Below are positions 24,383 through 42,063 of a stretch of DNA of 64,000 bases, in pieces. The notes under the pieces were generated by a model, which saw only the letters and a program-made list of their open reading frames with translations, was not told the DNA's origin and searched no databases. Location of the stretch: the IMG/VR virus record IMGVR_UViG_3300013414_000053, positions 25,685 through 89,684 of that record. One strand, given 5' to 3'. Positions within the stretch are counted from its first letter, which is position 1, and every line of letters begins with the position of its first letter. The stretch comes from a virus. Taxonomy: Duplodnaviria > Caudoviricetes. Both the position numbers and the translations under genes were made by a program.

Positions 24383-25765
24383 ATGGTAAGAGACTTAATC
24401 ATAGATATGAAGGAGCGCGACTTGTTAACCGAGGACAAGTCCAATGCTTCAGTGCCGATGTTCGACTCATTGTGGGGTAATATCTTCGATGAGGATAAAG
24501 AACTTAACATTCTTATCTGTAACATTATTATTCCCGAAGCCTACTGGAGTATTGTAGGATATGAAGATGGCGAAATGACTTGCCGTTTCAAATCTTCATA
24601 CATACCCAATACCAGCAATTTCAGAATCAGACTTGTAGGATTACGCGATGGCAAGTATTATGTCTTTGAAAGAATCAGAGGCGATTTTGGTTTGCCAGTA
24701 AATAGCTATGTCCTTAGCAAGAATATTGCCGCCCCCATACCGGCTTGTATGCTTCCATTCATAGATATTGATGGGGAATTTATGATCAAGATGGTGCAAA
24801 ACAGTAAATCTGAGGTACTGGATAAGGCATATATCTACTCCGCAAAAAGCACTGACATCAGTATCAATTACAGTGATGATCAGGCTTCCCAGCTCCTGAC
24901 ATTATGTGCGCCCGGAAAAAGTTATAGATACCCGACAACTGGAGTGGGCATTACCAAATATTTGAATTGTGTAGTAGCTCATTCTGATTTACAGAAAGTT
25001 CTGGAAGCTCAATTTAACGGCGATAAGAAACCCATTCAGGATGCAGAATTTGATAACGAGACGTGTAAGCTCGATGTGCTTTTTAGCCCTGAAAAGGAAG
25101 AATCAGATATAGGCTTAGATGATATTGATGACCTCAATCTCTCATTCTTCAGTCTGTTTACCGATGAATATGTGCGACGCAATGTAGTTCTGAATGAACT
25201 ATCAGATACCGATTTTATGGAGCTGTTAAATGGCTATCCCTACGTTCTTAATATTCTTCTGTTTACGGACTATACAACCAGTGTTTCCAGAATAGCCAAT
25301 AAGGTCGAACCCGGTCAATTCAATGGTGTGGGAGAGATTGTTCCAAGTGATCAATACTACATCGTTTCTGATACCTTAGAGGCGAATACCATAGTTATGT
25401 TCAACGATGAGACCGAGGATAATGTAAAGGACGCTCCAATTTTCATCATCAATGATAACGATGAGACCCGACTCTATACCGCATTGGTCGAACAACCATA
25501 CTGGCTCACTGAAACTTGCCACAAGTGCTTTATCCTAAAGCGCCGGGCAGTGGTGAAATATATGATTCGCCAAGATCAATTCCACGCAGGAAAGGGATTG
25601 TATATGGTGCCTCAAACAAGTGCCAATATCAAGAATATGCTTGGACTGGTACAAGACATTCATACCGGCCGACTCCTTGGTATCGTATCAAACAGCACCA
25701 ACATCAGTGATATGACACTGGATGAAATCACTCAGCATATTTACGCAACTCAAATAAATCAATAG
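24383..25765 (+). CDS. Baseplate protein with internal gp25/W-like segment
   Basis: QASQLLTLCAPGKSYRYPTTGVGITKYL resembles gp25-like wedge motif. Confidence 0.55.
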   Translation: MVRDLIIDMKERDLLTEDKSNASVPMFDSLWGNIFDEDKELNILICNIIIPEAYWSIVGYEDGEMTCRFKSSYIPNTSNFRIRLVGLRDGKYYVFERIRGDFGLPVNSYVLSKNIAAPIPACMLPFIDIDGEFMIKMVQNSKSEVLDKAYIYSAKSTDISINYSDDQASQLLTLCAPGKSYRYPTTGVGITKYLNCVVAHSDLQKVLEAQFNGDKKPIQDAEFDNETCKLDVLFSPEKEESDIGLDDIDDLNLSFFSLFTDEYVRRNVVLNELSDTDFMELLNGYPYVLNILLFTDYTTSVSRIANKVEPGQFNGVGEIVPSDQYYIVSDTLEANTIVMFNDETEDNVKDAPIFIINDNDETRLYTALVEQPYWLTETCHKCFILKRRAVVKYMIRQDQFHAGKGLYMVPQTSANIKNMLGLVQDIHTGRLLGIVSNSTNISDMTLDEITQHIYATQINQ

Positions 25766-37047: not shown

Positions 37048-37079
37048 CAAAATTACTAAAAAACTCGTATCGAGCCAAA
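37048..37079 (-). promoter_or_regulatory. Bacteroidota housekeeping promoter for moron 2
   Basis: Minus strand TTTG (37079-37076), 20-nt spacer, TAATTTTG (37055-37048). Confidence 0.75.
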
Positions 37080-37139: not shown

Positions 37140-37598
37140 TTACCATAAAAGCCGGGTTATATTCCTTAATACCCCTCCTTCTACTTTATAAAGCCGTTGA
37201 TTTGTCTTGGGAGAACTGAGTGGTCCTAACTTTTTGATGAATGGTCCAAATTTCAAATAATCGAAATTTTGATACTCAGTGAAAACCGTGATTGTTTCGC
37301 CACCACTATACCAGCCAATCTTCAAGTCTGGATAATGGTTTCTAATGTAAGCTGCCAATTCGTTGATCTCATCAGGAGCAACATCTCCACCCATAAATAA
37401 GACACAAGTTATATCTTGAATTGTGGAATCTATCAGCATTTCAAGATTCTCATAACTCAATAGCTCACCAGAATCCTCCCATAAGTATTTAGTATTGCAT
37501 CCTTTGCATTTGAATGGGCAGTTGGCAATATTGATTACAAGAGACACCTCATTAGGTATCTCCTGTTATCCTATTGCTATGTCACGATACTTCAGCAT
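37140..37598 (-). pseudogene. nrdG: NrdG-like radical SAM activase interrupted by in-frame TAA at codon 11
   Basis: ATG 37598 gives MLKYRDIAIG*QEIPNEVSLVINIANCPFKCKGC; TAA at 37568-37566; CxxxCxxC intact. Confidence 0.75.
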
Positions 37599-37600
37599 CA

Positions 37601-39940
37601 TCAGCTACATTTGGAATAACCACACGAAGGGCACGTCATACAACCCTCAGACATATTCAGTTCCTCGCCACACTTCGGACACTTGGAATTTCCGCTTTTG
37701 GTTCCATTCTGAACCGACTGATAAACACCAGTTTCCTTCTGTATATTTCTCACCTTCAACTCTTGCTGAAGCTGATTATACATATCGGTCAAAGCAAATC
37801 CGATAGCTACCGGGCAAGAAGATCCTTTGGAGGTATCATTCTTGGTGGCCTTGCGAACTGCATAAGAAGGACAAGTGCCAGCACTTTTAAGTTGATCCAC
37901 AATATCCTCAATAGAGATATTTCCTCTGGCTGCCAGCGACACCATTCGTGATAGTCCGGCCATAAAGAGAGCGCACCCACCCTGGGAGCCTTTGCTGAAA
38001 TATGTTTCAAGCAACTGACCAGTCTCTCGATCAAAGAAAGCTGTAAGATGAAGAGTGCCACAACCAGTTATCAGAGTACGCTTTCGACCGATACAATCGT
38101 CAGAAGCCTTTTTGATTTTGGTCGGAGTATTTGGTGAAACCTCTTCTTTTGTAGGCTGTTCATCTTTTGATAAGATAGCCTGTCGCTCACATCCATTACG
38201 CCAGATAGTAATGCCTTTGAGTCCTTTCTTCCAGGCCAGCATATATAAGTCTGCCACATCTTCCACAGTAGTGGAATTAGGAAGATTTACAGTCGAACTG
38301 ATAGAAGCGTCTATGAAGCTCTGGAGCATCGCCTGGACCTCTATTCTATCTTTGTAAGGGATTTCATCGGCCGCTACGAAAAAGTCCGGTAGAATGGCCT
38401 CTCCGGTCACTTCTTTATATAGAGCTATAATGGGAGTATCAACTTTGTAGATAGTCTCTTCATTGTTGAGCGATACCGTCCTACGATTGTAAGAAAAAGC
38501 GAAGTTAGGCTCTACTCCAGTGCTTACCTGAAGCATTGTACCGATTGTACCAGTCGGAGCGCAAGTTAAAAGCTGAGAATTGTATAGGCCATAATACTCA
38601 ATCTCTTTCAGGATAGTGTTTGAGAGATTCAGATTGCGAATAAAATCGCTCTTTACCATAGCCTTCTTGATTTCATCAGTGCAGTTGGGGAAAGCTCCAT
38701 TTTCCTTAGCTAACTGTAAAGATGTAAGAATCGCATGAATGGCTATAAGACGATAGACTTCCTCAATCACAGCAAGGGATTCAGGTGAGCCATATTTCAG
38801 ACCCAATTTGATAAGCATATCGCCTAAGCCCATTGTCCCCAGACCAATCTGGCGCCAACCAGCAACCGATTCTCGTTGTTCCTGAAGTGGATGTAACGGC
38901 AACCCCTCCATCAGCACACCATTCAAGGCTTTGATGGCGCACTCTACTGCTGATCGGAGAGCCATTGTATTAACACTGGCATCAGCAGTAAAAGGTTTGG
39001 TTACGAACTTGGAAAGATTTAGGCTACCGAGCAAGCAGGAACCACCAGCCGGCAGGGGTTCTTCGGCGCATGGGTTTACTCCAGCATACTTGAAGTCAGT
39101 ATTTTGGAGAAGATTATAGTTGGAAATTCGGTCCCAGTATAAAATACCCGGCTCTGCCATTTCCCAGTTACGACGTGCCAGAAGCATAAACACCTCTTTG
39201 GCATTGATAACTCTTGTAATTTCAGAACAATTCTCCATTGTGAAGTGGAGCTTAAAATCAGCATTAGCTTCGACAGCCCGCATAAAAGCATCTGTCACAC
39301 GAACTGAGATATTGGCCTTAGTGCAGATGTCAAGATCTGATTTAAGATTGATGAACTCAACCAAATCAGGATGTTCACAAGAAATGCTGATCATTAACGC
39401 ACCGCGCCGGCCCTCCTGACCTATGAGGCCAGTAATGTAACTGTAAAGATCCATAAAGCTAACAGTGCCTGAAGTGCTTTTGGCCGCATTATTCACCGGG
39501 GCATTTTTGGGTCTGAGATTGCTAATGTCAAGACCGCATCCACCACCATAACTGAATGTTCTCGCCAGTTTTGAACCAGCATCAAAGATTGACTCCAGAG
39601 AGTCCTGGGGAGGGGTTAGGCAGTAACAATTACTGTATGTGATCTTACGATCAGTCACGCCACGATTGGATAGGATTCTACCAGCAAAGATAAACTTCTG
39701 TTCTTTGATAAGCTGACGTAAGCACTGATTGCCACCAGACACTCTATCAAGCCATTGCTCAAAAGTTTCATCTCCCTGCTGATATTTTCTCTTCCAAATG
39801 TCGATTGAAAGAGCTTCTCCATTCAACCATTCCTCGACCGTCATGCCGGGGCCAGCTGAAGGATTATCACTTTGTTTGAGATTATTTGATTGTTCCATAG
39901 CTAAAAATGTTGGAGCCGGACAGAACAGTCTGCCCGGCAC
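37601..39940 (-). CDS. nrdJ: Class II (adenosylcobalamin-type) ribonucleotide reductase with TSCPD-like domain and C-terminal Zn ribbon
   Basis: SNCYCL, GVNPCAEEPL, CAPTGTIG, CPKC...CPSC; no class I beta gene in window. Confidence 0.88.
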   Translation of the reverse strand: MPGRLFCPAPTFLAMEQSNNLKQSDNPSAGPGMTVEEWLNGEALSIDIWKRKYQQGDETFEQWLDRVSGGNQCLRQLIKEQKFIFAGRILSNRGVTDRKITYSNCYCLTPPQDSLESIFDAGSKLARTFSYGGGCGLDISNLRPKNAPVNNAAKSTSGTVSFMDLYSYITGLIGQEGRRGALMISISCEHPDLVEFINLKSDLDICTKANISVRVTDAFMRAVEANADFKLHFTMENCSEITRVINAKEVFMLLARRNWEMAEPGILYWDRISNYNLLQNTDFKYAGVNPCAEEPLPAGGSCLLGSLNLSKFVTKPFTADASVNTMALRSAVECAIKALNGVLMEGLPLHPLQEQRESVAGWRQIGLGTMGLGDMLIKLGLKYGSPESLAVIEEVYRLIAIHAILTSLQLAKENGAFPNCTDEIKKAMVKSDFIRNLNLSNTILKEIEYYGLYNSQLLTCAPTGTIGTMLQVSTGVEPNFAFSYNRRTVSLNNEETIYKVDTPIIALYKEVTGEAILPDFFVAADEIPYKDRIEVQAMLQSFIDASISSTVNLPNSTTVEDVADLYMLAWKKGLKGITIWRNGCERQAILSKDEQPTKEEVSPNTPTKIKKASDDCIGRKRTLITGCGTLHLTAFFDRETGQLLETYFSKGSQGGCALFMAGLSRMVSLAARGNISIEDIVDQLKSAGTCPSYAVRKATKNDTSKGSSCPVAIGFALTDMYNQLQQELKVRNIQKETGVYQSVQNGTKSGNSKCPKCGEELNMSEGCMTCPSCGYSKCS

Positions 39941-39951
39941 CTAATAATAGA

Positions 39952-40350
39952 TTAAAGTAGCTTGAAGTAATGTTTCAAAGCTAATACCACTTCAGTGATA
40001 CCTTCCATTGAGGTATAAACTGGTTTATATCCCATAAGGTCGTTATCGGCTACCTTATAATCGCTTATAGACAACTTTTCAACGTCCGACCGGAATATCT
40101 GATATTCTTCATCAGAAAGTGGATGTTTCTGAGTGCTGAGACGTTCCAGAAGCACATCTACCCAAACGGGGGCATAAAACTTCATAGCTCCAACTGGAGG
40201 CTCTTCTTCTGTAACCTTAGATTTCAAGATTACCAGAACCAATGGCAAGATTTCTTCCAGAGCCTGATAATCCCTGGTAGTGTGGTGATTTTCGAGCACA
40301 CTGACAGCCTTCTTTACATCAGTGAGAGTATAGTTATCATTCGTTCCCAT
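39952..40350 (-). CDS. Hypothetical protein (MGTNDNYTL...)
   Basis: ATG 40350 overlaps end of upstream small gene. Confidence 0.6.
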   Translation of the reverse strand: MGTNDNYTLTDVKKAVSVLENHHTTRDYQALEEILPLVLVILKSKVTEEEPPVGAMKFYAPVWVDVLLERLSTQKHPLSDEEYQIFRSDVEKLSISDYKVADNDLMGYKPVYTSMEGITEVVLALKHYFKLL

Positions 40351-40537
40351 ACTCTTCGCCCTCCATGCGCTCCAGTTGTTCGATGTGAGATGATAGGACT
40401 GACTGGACGTATTCCATTTCATCCATCTCCTTCATCAGTCTGCTTACCTGATTGCCCTGAAGCCAGTTTAAGATTAAGCTCCACACAAGCAATATCAGCA
40501 GAAGTGTAATTACAACTTTTTGTTTTTGCTGTTTCAT
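40337..40537 (-). CDS. Small single-TM protein
   Basis: VVITLLLILLVWSLILNWL helix followed by coiled coil. Confidence 0.6.
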   Translation of the reverse strand: MKQQKQKVVITLLLILLVWSLILNWLQGNQVSRLMKEMDEMEYVQSVLSSHIEQLERMEGEEYGNE

Positions 40538-40539
40538 TA

Positions 40540-41227
40540 CTGATCGAGTTTTGAAACACTGCCTTCATCACTTGCGCTCGTGTGCGCTCAAAAAAATATT
40601 CATTGCGGTAGTTTACGAACACAGTTACCCCTTATAGGGGGTTAAGTGTTCACCCTACTCGCTGTGCATCGCATTGTAATTCATTGCGTACAGTTATACT
40701 GTTGCACAGGGCAAAATCTTTTTTTAAGTCGCACTTGCCTAATGATGATAATGCGGTTCATCATTCCTACCCCGCGACTCTCGCTATATTTCCCTGCGAG
40801 TCTCAGACGTGCCCGGTGGGTTGTGAATATGCCGTCGGCACCATAGGTGTTCTTGAAGTTATCTCTCGGCTCAAAAGAACCTTGGCATTACCGTTTGCCG
40901 CTCCCTATGGGTTTTGCGTCCCAGAGTGTTTCATCTACTTGCCAACGACTGCTTTTTTCATTAACTTTGCAATCACCTATCCACGCATCGTTGTTGTGCC
41001 GGATTGCCGTGATGCTGCGGTTAAAGGCCCGCTACGGCTTTTGATGTTGTACCGACAGTTTGCTTGAAACACTCAAAGCTGGTGTCGGGCAATAAGGGAA
41101 TACAAAAATTCCCCGCAATCTCTTGTGGTGCCAGATCGTGGGGAATTTGTAATATATTGAATGAGCCTTACGGACTCAACGTATATTCCGTATGTCCGCA
41201 TTGTTGAGGCACCAATTCAACATTGCG
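40540..41227 (-). ncRNA. Candidate large structured ncRNA or 5' leader (~690 nt)
   Basis: No credible ORF; promoter at 41231-41262; many nested stems, with G-U pairs favouring the minus strand. Confidence 0.55.
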
Positions 41228-41230
41228 ATG

Positions 41231-41262
41231 CAAAGGTAATGCTAATTATTGGATGCTCCAAA
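41231..41262 (-). promoter_or_regulatory. Bacteroidota housekeeping promoter (leftward)
   Basis: Minus strand TTTG (41262-41259), 20-nt spacer, TACCTTTG (41238-41231). Confidence 0.75.
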
Positions 41263-41452: not shown

Positions 41453-41483
41453 TTTGCCATCTCAAAATGTTTTTCTAATTTTG
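41453..41483 (+). promoter_or_regulatory. Bacteroidota housekeeping promoter for replication module
   Basis: TTTG 41453-41456, 19-nt spacer, TAATTTTG 41476-41483. Confidence 0.75.
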
Positions 41484-41538: not shown

Positions 41539-42063
41539 ATGATTCGTGGAAAAGGAAAATTGAGGAAGGTAGCAGGTCACACCGTTATCGACGAGTTTAA
41601 GCAAGCGTGTGAGAAGCTCCCCGACAACGATAACTACCTTTTCGTGATATGTGACGATACGCGAAATAGGAATTTACCTTATATTTCCTATCTATTCTCG
41701 GTAGTGTTGAAATTCCTTTCGGACTCTTTGCCCGATCATCCCAGCACTACAGCACTCTACAAATATTTTGAGGATATGTTTGCTCCGATACATACCGTCA
41801 AAATAAAAGGTCAGCGGTTTAGTTACTGCGAATTAAAATCGGAGAAAGCAAGTGATGTCAACGATGTAATAGAGAAAATTGTTGAATATGCCCTAAAGGA
41901 ATGGGGTATTGAGGTTCCACGCAATGAGGATCTTCGAGATCCGGCAATGCGAGAACTGCATAGCCAAGCCTACTTGAATCAAGAGGCTGATTGGAGCAAT
42001 TTTATCTCTTCGCGCAAATTATCTAAAGATGAGCGAAGAAAAAAGAAAACTGAGCGCATTTGA
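41539..42063 (+). CDS. NinB/YbcN-like recombination accessory protein
   Basis: RNRNLPYISYLFSVVL...DVIEKIVEYALKEWGIEVP resembles NinB-like architecture. Confidence 0.45.
   Translation: MIRGKGKLRKVAGHTVIDEFKQACEKLPDNDNYLFVICDDTRNRNLPYISYLFSVVLKFLSDSLPDHPSTTALYKYFEDMFAPIHTVKIKGQRFSYCELKSEKASDVNDVIEKIVEYALKEWGIEVPRNEDLRDPAMRELHSQAYLNQEADWSNFISSRKLSKDERRKKKTERI

Follow-up and report, generated by a model that had tools for sequence, protein, structure and literature searches.

A Conserved Structured RNA Ahead of a Phage Class II Ribonucleotide Reductase Operon: A Candidate Leader with a Kissing-Loop Attenuator

Introduction

Bacteroidales and their phages dominate the mammalian gut. To our knowledge, very few bacterial or phage RNAs longer than 500 nt have an architecture supported by covariation, and almost none of these come from Bacteroidales or their phages. 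This report describes an RNA element of about 690 nt in the tailed phage (Duplodnaviria; Caudoviricetes) of the IMG/VR virus record IMGVR_UViG_3300013414_000053. The window, that is the whole stretch of DNA that was analyzed, comprises 64,000 nt (positions 25,685 to 89,684) of this 89.7-kb record. The element lies between a leftward operon that includes nrdJ, the gene of a class II ribonucleotide reductase (RNR), and a rightward unit that begins with a NinB-like gene (Table 1). It had been noticed in a sequence-only reading made without database searches, several claims of which are revisited below. As far as comparison of sequences reaches, it is a real, conserved and previously uncatalogued structured RNA. 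Emphasis will be placed on its 5′ domain, in which the loop of an intrinsic terminator is complementary to the loop of an upstream hairpin in every sequence aligned.

Table 1. Features of the RNA element and of the flanking gene units, in window coordinates (ORF, open reading frame; aa, amino acids).
Feature	Position	Strand	Description
Structured RNA element	40538-41230	minus	About 690 nt; sits between two divergent gene units
Bacteroidetes-type promoter	41231-41262	minus	-33 box TTTG 41259-41262; -7 box TAccTTTG 41231-41238; 20-nt spacer
Hairpin P1	41202-41222	minus	UGUUGA 41217-41222 with UCAACA 41202-41207; L1 core UGGUGCC 41208-41214
Variable middle	41149-41201	minus	Small hairpins P2 and P3; conserved AU-rich AAUAU and AUAUAUU (alignments A2, A3)
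Intrinsic terminator T	41104-41147	minus	Stem 41133-41147 with 41107-41121; 11-nt loop; U-tract 41104-41108
Segment c (AUUCCCU)	41095-41101	minus	Complementary to the 3′ strand of T; post-terminator hairpin possible, with the U-tract as loop
Hairpin H-A	41052-41088	minus	Outer stem 41083-41088 with 41052-41057; inner GCUU/AAGC; loop X1 GAGUGUUUCA 41065-41074
Segment Y (UGAAACACUC)	40924-40933	minus	Long-range pseudoknot partner of H-A loop X1
Core multi-helix domain	40831-40949	minus	Closed by the 9-bp helix 40941-40949/40831-40839
Distal helices	40600-40830	minus	40776-40802, 40741-40765, 40662-40709 and 40617-40651 (the last encloses a CCCC..GGGG hairpin)
3′ box (UGAUGAAGGCAGUG)	40557-40570	minus	Consensus UGAUGAAAGCAGUG
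Start-codon hairpin	40530-40560	minus	X2 AGUGUUUCA 40552-40560 with UGAAACA 40530-40536, at AUG 40535-40537 of the 66-aa ORF
Operon 3′ of the element	37140-40537	minus	66-aa membrane protein, 156-aa ORF, class II RNR, radical-SAM NrdG-like ORF
Class II RNR gene (nrdJ)	37601-39940	minus	Pfam Ribonuc_red_lgC and TSCPD
Radical-SAM NrdG-like ORF, nrdJ operon		minus	Pfam Fer4_12/Radical_SAM
Unit right of the element		plus	174-aa NinB-like, 491-aa protein without assignment, SbcD/SbcC-like genes
174-aa NinB-like gene	41539-42063	plus	NinB identity is a lead only

Non-coding Status and Conservation

No reading frame stays open across 40538-41230 and, since stop codons of all three types sit in every minus-strand frame, stop-codon recoding and a hidden gene are ruled out. 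The sole sizeable ORF on the plus strand (40684-41067, 127 aa in the window copy) was also rejected as a gene: it has no Pfam match, its substitutions show no third-position bias, its indels are not multiples of three and it is shortened to 73 aa in the related locus L010. The sequence-only reading had seen no credible ORF over some 690 nt, which is borne out, and a conserved protein-coding frame, which it had named as grounds for giving up the RNA, was found on neither strand.

With the 491-aa protein as the query, 45 related viral loci were retrieved. The element occupies the same place and orientation in the relatives, at 99%, 89%, 81% and about 75% identity and then weaker, and is syntenic and conserved in about 20 distinct related phage sequences. 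Every clade has 650–1020 ORF-free nt after the promoter, also where other genes come first: the element is followed by a 223-aa ORF in L012 and by an ORF with an RNase-H-like N-terminus (recognized by eye) in L056. Although these first ORFs differ, the operon that follows the element contains an RNR gene in the clades checked, clade F not being among them. The 3′ 560 nt of the window copy are 91% identical to those of L005 and 86% to those of L010, compared with 72–79% for nrdJ, the two small ORFs of its operon and the 491-aa gene; because this identity exceeds that of the flanking genes, the non-coding stretch is under stronger nucleotide constraint than its neighbors.

Scans for exact patterns in collections of viruses, metagenomes and genomes recovered further copies from gut, from rumen and from bins of metagenome-assembled genomes (MAGs), and outside this phage lineage only chance matches. 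Model R1, run over 150 sampled Bacteroidales genomes, detected only the prophage-bearing MAG described below and one false match without P1. The element showed no similarity to GenBank phage records and no homology to two “moron” leaders of the same phage.

Compared with shuffled sequences, the whole element folds with z = −3.65 on the minus strand and z = −3.48 on the plus strand, and its first 133 nt with z = −5.03. Folding better than shuffled controls, as well as conservation and covariation in related phages, were the checks that the sequence-only reading had proposed, and all of them came out in favor of the RNA. Its statement that the RNA could not be assigned to a family also holds at permissive thresholds: Rfam 15 gave no match at the gathering threshold for the window and 8 related loci, none at E ≤ 10 inside the window element (the models covered include cobalamin, GOLLD, ROOL, OLE, raiA, group I/II introns, 6S, RNase P and tmRNA) and none at E ≤ 1 in clades F and B, and no tRNA or tmRNA was found. 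Literature searches found no published description of this RNA, and the parts covered of a survey of microbiome RNA motifs (PMC8040213), its supplementary motifs excepted, do not mention ribonucleotide reductase.

Promoter and Transcription

The consensus of Bacteroidetes promoters consists of TTTG and TAnnTTTG-type boxes separated by 20 nt. What the sequence-only reading had described as a canonical leftward promoter (41231-41262) is real and conserved, both boxes being invariant across all relatives, but it is of this Bacteroidetes sigma-A type and not of the sigma-70 consensus. It is one of 7 full-consensus promoters in the 64-kb window (2 expected), and a divergent full-consensus promoter lies ahead of the NinB-like gene at 41453-41483 on the plus strand. 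Transcription of the element would start at about 41223-41227.

Internal consensus promoters were found neither in the window element nor in 11 representatives of six clades. On the minus strand there is none between 41231 and 37080, the next one downstream in the window being located past the operon (37048-37079), and no terminator-like site was found between the RNA body and the first ORF. Since the element has no internal consensus promoter, the nrdJ operon must be transcribed through terminator T.

The AUG at nucleotide 8 of the transcript is invariant. Leader-peptide attenuation from this codon is nevertheless unlikely because the ORF behind it, read by hand, varies from 13 to 74 codons among relatives and often extends through the terminator.

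The motif CA(N)CGCAA, at times extended to CGCAATGTTGAA, also stands directly after the TAnnTTTG box at unrelated Bacteroidales loci (L194:2199-2260, L248:6640-6700, L178:10317-10380, L270:1501-1614 and 2140-2200), three of which (L178, L194 and L248) are mutually homologous and without Rfam match. This suggests that the motif is a common Bacteroidales start-site context and not part of the structured RNA. Helix P0 (CGC/GCG at the extreme 5′ end), a proposal of RNAalifold, is doubtful as L023, L053 and L054 disrupt it with no compensatory change; it is probably start-site context too, because CA(U/A)CGCAA follows the -7 box at those unrelated loci.

A Terminator Whose Loop Pairs with an Upstream Loop

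The 5′ domain (41098-41230) was examined in an alignment of 20 distinct sequences. P1 consists of six pairs with G-U and compensatory variants, its stem being GUCAAAA/UUUUGAC in L023 and GAUG/CAUC in L029 and L031, two loci from distant phages. In the variable middle, P3 is present in all clades with differing sequences. The stem of T (−19.3 kcal/mol, z = −4.2 in the window) is paired in 98% of the alignment cells, compensatory changes included; across the alignment T has a stem of 8–15 bp, a loop of 11–20 nt and a U-tract, the latter in every clade including the distant L029 and L031. The hairpin that the sequence-only reading had called attenuator-like is thus a conserved intrinsic terminator, and the locus has the layout by which attenuators are recognized, namely a promoter-proximal GC-rich hairpin with a U-tract directly after it, upstream of the genes to be regulated.

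The same reading had pointed out that loop 41126-41132, which forms the first 7 nt of the T loop (GGCACCA), is complementary to 41208-41214, the core of L1, and this turned out to be the best-supported feature of the element. The core of the P1 loop and the first 7–8 nt of the T loop are complementary in every sequence, in at least 13 covarying versions which include UGGUGCC/GGCACCA, GUGGUGU/ACACCAC, GUGACGGC/GCCGUCAC, UGAUGGGUC/GACCCAUCA, GCACGGU/ACCGUGC, GUGUGGU/ACCGCAC and CUGGAACU/GGUUCCAG, as well as UGUGGGG/CCCCACA and GUGACGAG/CUCGUCAC in the distant phages (L029, L031). The duplex between L1 and the T loop has a mean energy of −12.7 kcal/mol for cognate and −6.3 kcal/mol for non-cognate partners. 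On a MAFFT alignment of the domain, which places five sequences out of register in the loop, P1, T and the kissing loops taken together still have 90.5% of cells paired, as against 31–49% when slid, and their covariation score was matched by none of 500 shuffles. Between L056 and L126, which are 95% identical, 5 of 7 differences fall in the kissing loops with pairing kept, through three pairing-keeping changes of which two are fully compensatory and one leads to G-U. Across close pairs, changes at the kissing-loop positions are overall no more frequent than in the remainder of the domain (0.072 vs 0.075 differences per site).

Throughout the clades, the bases that pair in the two loops lie directly next to the P1 3′ strand and the T 5′ strand, leaving 2–6 unpaired bases on the opposite side; P1, the loop-loop helix and T may stack coaxially as a single rod. 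Segment c, which follows T, covaries with the terminator 3′ strand in clade A (GGGGAAU/AUUCCCU, GGGGGAU/AUCCCCC, GGGUGC/GCACCC) and takes other registers in clades B, C and E. By its position the predicted segment c hairpin can form in read-through transcripts only.

A side observation concerns L005 and L006, which are 99.5% identical over 7.4 kb except for a sharply bounded stretch of about 400 bp (L005:5050-5450). This exchanged cassette is exactly the RNA 5′ domain plus the divergent promoter region; the regulatory unit therefore appears to be swapped as a module, as immunity regions are.

The RNA Body and Its Long-Range Pseudoknot

The counted structure model comprises 132 pairs on 13 sequences, both long-range pairings included. 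It has 92.8% of cells paired, compared with 34–40% in slid controls, and 47 pairs changed on both sides, compared with about 20 in shuffles; none of 500 shuffles was as good by any measure. With 24 helices, 16 of them holding at least one compensatory pair, and two long-range loop pairings, the element fits the description of a large ornate RNA (longer than 500 nt, non-coding, with a multi-domain structure supported by covariation). All six helices listed by the sequence-only reading hold within the closest clade (A), and the 9-bp helix which closes the core domain keeps 9 of 9 pairs through two independent G-C to G-U changes. The minus-strand polarity claimed for the element fits as well, with 152 G-U cells against 34 A-C cells in a model that was itself derived on the minus strand.

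Four of the six pairs in the outer stem of hairpin H-A show compensatory changes, and this hairpin is recognizable in clades A, B, and C; by eye, L031 carries an analogous one. Its loop X1 and segment Y form a perfect 10-nt complement in the window and covary elsewhere (GAACAUUU/AAAUGUUC in clade B, GAAUAUUU/AAAUAUUC in clade C and, by eye, GCUUUCAA/UUGAAAGC in L031). The core domain encloses the helix 40904-40910/40841-40847, two hairpins and the conserved single strand GAGAGAUAACUUCA; the junction with this strand is common to clades A and E, the enclosing helix changing from CCAUAGG/CCUAUGG to UAUGGG/CCCAUA in clade E. The distal helices (16–23 of the counted model) are 86–95% paired, several of them with compensatory changes. 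As a whole the body diverges fast between clades while islands persist, for instance H-A and its partner in clades A, B, and C.

One body hairpin (UAUGGCAAUC..GAUAGAUA) is tandemly duplicated in L013 (L013:4428-5220, columns 307-353 of A3) and in L149, with compensatory changes in the stem distinguishing one copy from the other.

The 3′ Box and the Start-Codon Hairpin

The 3′ box is nearly invariant in clades A to E amid diverging surroundings, and is shrunk to GAGCAGUG in L054. The start-codon hairpin has 7–10 bp in clades A, D, and E and covaries, pairing as AGUUUGAUUU/AAAUCGAACU in clade B and as GUGCUUU/AAAGCAU in clade C. Taken alone it is weak in the window copy (−8 kcal/mol, z = −0.9). 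Two further pairings were rejected: one between the 5′ end and GAUG of the 3′ box, which shows no covariation and is mismatched in clades D and E, and a cross-talk of X1:Y with X2:start codon, which is confined to clade A (where X1 and X2 share sequence and Y mimics the start region) and fails in clades B and C.

The Phage and the Neighboring Genes

A near-identical copy of the element occurs in a 252-kb contig of a Bacteroides sp. MAG (G001:C9:80428-81126), about 42 kb from a gene for a 206-aa tyrosine recombinase (G001:C9:37993-38505) which is the same recombinase as in the IMG/VR record. Because of this location and of the recombinase the phage is probably temperate, with a Bacteroidales host, and the MAG copy probably belongs to an integrated prophage.

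The rightward genes were also considered as terminase subunits, which is ruled out by their assignments (Table 1). The NinB-like gene is the best-conserved one of the neighborhood, with 81–87% nucleotide identity in all clades (72–79% for the others), and shares 35 nt with the start of the 491-aa gene. In the leftward operon, the 66-aa ORF and the 156-aa ORF as listed overlap by 86 nt in different frames (40337-40422); the true start of the second gene is probably the ATG overlapping the stop codon of the first (ATGGGAACGAATGA), which would give a coupled restart. The RNR ORF has 718–780 aa in the window, L003, L010, L015, L016, and L019-L022, 865 aa in L018 and 1069–1118 aa in L005, L012, and L013. 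The extra 300–400 codons in some relatives may correspond to an intein or an inserted domain.

Interpretation: A Candidate Cis-Regulatory Leader

The sequence-only reading had left a choice between a large ornate non-coding RNA (ncRNA) and a regulatory leader, with antitermination, of the nrdJ operon. Conservation, covariation, folding and non-coding status support this pair of options, and the choice tilts to the leader because there is no internal promoter and a conserved hairpin buries the start codon. We propose, with moderate confidence, that the element is a new cis-regulatory leader in which a kissing-loop-locked attenuator and a translational operator stand ahead of the nrdJ operon. 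Action in cis is favored by the presence of one promoter only, by a conserved terminator close to it, by the start-codon hairpin with its covariation and by the RNR gene that follows the element in the clades checked.

According to this proposal the element would be the 5′ part of a leftward early transcript made by a host-type RNA polymerase from the 41231-41262 promoter. A hairpin with a loop of 11–20 nt would be a poor terminator by itself; by closing the T loop, the kissing interaction would set the share of transcription that stops at about +125, yielding a small RNA, versus that which reads on. Freeing or occupying L1 (by refolding of the RNA, by a protein or a ligand, or by a further RNA copy) would then increase read-through. 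Folding of the body would make the long untranslated stretch compact; at the 3′ end, the hairpin would gate translation of the first ORF and, by coupling, that of the genes behind.

The closest analogies are found among riboswitches and attenuators. Johnson and colleagues reportedly described, in 2012, a regulatory kissing loop (L5-L13) in the cobalamin riboswitch. In both RNAs a loop within the upstream fold pairs with the loop of the hairpin in the expression platform, a tertiary contact by which the output would be decided, and the gene of a B12-dependent enzyme (nrdJ) lies downstream of the phage RNA. The latter, however, has no B12 box and no match to any cobalamin model in Rfam, its platform is an intrinsic terminator and not a ribosome-binding site hairpin, and 560 nt of conserved structure follow. 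With classical attenuators and riboswitch platforms it shares the promoter-proximal GC-rich hairpin and U-tract before the regulated genes and a long 5′ untranslated region. It differs from classical attenuators in that no conserved antiterminator was found, in that the putative leader peptide is not conserved, and in that conservation and covariation reside in the terminator loop itself, which is unusually large.

Several points weigh against a leader of this kind. No mutually exclusive antiterminator with covariation was found for the antitermination part of the earlier proposal, and termination at about +125 and read-through are themselves predictions from sequence. The minimum free energy fold of the isolated window 5′ domain sequesters L1 and is kept in clade A and L077, whereas only 6–11 of its 15 pairs form elsewhere. 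The P3 apex, complementary to L1, is a weak lead as an L1 decoy, ranking first by duplex energy in clades B, D, and E only; ungapped matching gave no covarying decoy and duplex energies a partial signal only. Clade F lacks both the 3′ box and the small first ORF, L054 lacks them in part, and yet the long RNA is retained in both. Moreover, a body of about 450 nt conserved above coding genes goes far beyond the needs of known attenuators. Its size and exceptional conservation, the tertiary-type pairings and the persistence after loss of the 3′ box and first ORF are, on the sequences compared, unexplained by a leader.

It is possible, if rather improbable, that the RNA belongs to a class of large ornate RNAs, of about 0.7–1 kb, that is new and proper to gut Bacteroidales phages, and that its kissing loops and pseudoknots make a defined three-dimensional object. 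Such an RNA would be more than a leader: either a sensor of nucleotide or cofactor state that gates the B12-dependent reductase operon, or an RNA-only assembly or decoy made at the start of infection.

Alternative Explanations

A tentative alternative, to which we give a minor share of our belief, is a free-standing large ornate ncRNA in the manner of GOLLD, ROOL, and OLE which acts in trans, as a scaffold, an anti-defense decoy or a self-assembling particle, and whose place ahead of the operon is incidental. In the particle version the loop-loop pairing could be intermolecular; kissing loops are said to hold the homo-oligomers of the three known RNAs together. These RNAs were recently shown to form homo-oligomeric RNA-only complexes (PMC12286853). 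They resemble the phage RNA in size (0.6–0.8 kb), in their many covarying helices and pseudoknots, in a frequent association with phages and in a function that is not established. A length of 0.65–1.0 kb in every clade, nucleotide conservation above that of the neighboring genes, several covarying long-range pairings of tertiary type and retention of the RNA where the first ORFs and the 3′ box have been replaced all suit a free-standing RNA. However, neither a 3′ terminator that would close the RNA before the ORF nor an internal promoter that would serve the operon was found. The RNA has no similarity to any Rfam family and no homology to GOLLD, ROOL, or OLE, from which it also differs in being confined to one lineage of Bacteroidales phages and in its layout as an operon leader, which starts with a terminator and ends in a covarying hairpin tied to the start codon of the ORF.

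An RNA module of immunity or specificity is unlikely. Phage P4 CI RNA and P1/P7 c4 RNA confer immunity through complementary segments in a promoter-proximal leader and premature termination. By analogy, the RNA of about 125 nt, or the loops in it, would act in trans on nascent transcripts of the same phage or of an incoming related one, pairing with them and causing them to terminate prematurely, the loops defining the specificity group. The likeness lies in the many distinct complementary loop pairs that differ among close relatives and in a cassette exchanged by recombination (5′ domain plus promoter region in L005 and L006), and a phage found in a Bacteroides contig and equipped with a tyrosine recombinase, hence probably temperate, would have use for such a module. 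Here, however, both partners are hairpin loops 80 nt apart within one 125-nt RNA, in a geometry that suits cis pairing and stacking. The loops evolve no faster than the rest of their domain, the 560-nt body is left without a role, the operon concerned serves nucleotide metabolism and not a lytic switch, and there is no sequence similarity to the P4 or P1/P7 RNAs.

We consider it very improbable that the element acts at the DNA level or in priming, that is with an origin in the divergent region and a transcript that is a structured pre-primer (in the style of ColE1 RNA II), or as single-stranded DNA hairpins. Its location between divergent early units beside NinB-like and SbcCD-like genes would be apt for an origin, its transcript is a long, structured and promoter-driven untranslated RNA, and the cumulative GC skew turns at the element; this turn, however, coincides with the switch of coding strand. 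The G-U-preserving changes and the terminator U-tract point to a function as RNA, no iterons or AT-rich unwinding repeats were found in the element, and the start-codon hairpin has no place in such a scheme.

That the stretch holds no functional RNA at all, and is instead a gene that has decayed or is recoded, or a spacer that folds by chance, is scarcely credible and, as far as sequence analysis reaches, is refuted: the 127-aa plus-strand ORF of the window copy and the better-than-shuffled folding of both strands could be cited for it, but the stops in every minus-strand frame, the lack of conservation, codon-position bias and Pfam match of that ORF, the strong covariation and a conservation above that of real genes all contradict it.

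Concluding Remarks

At the nucleotide level the phage RNA is more constrained than the reductase gene that it precedes, and its design lies outside the standard catalogue of attenuators in that an upstream loop has its conserved, covarying partner in the loop of the terminator itself. If the proposed leader is true, the control point of attenuation would consist of tertiary RNA contacts instead of a competing helix. The natural loop variants provide a ready set of compensatory mutants and thereby a tractable test system. Should the body prove functional in its own right, it would be a good candidate for cryo-electron microscopy beside GOLLD, ROOL, and OLE. The element may also offer a way into the timing and dosing of phage nucleotide-metabolism genes in hosts that do not rely on Shine-Dalgarno-based initiation.

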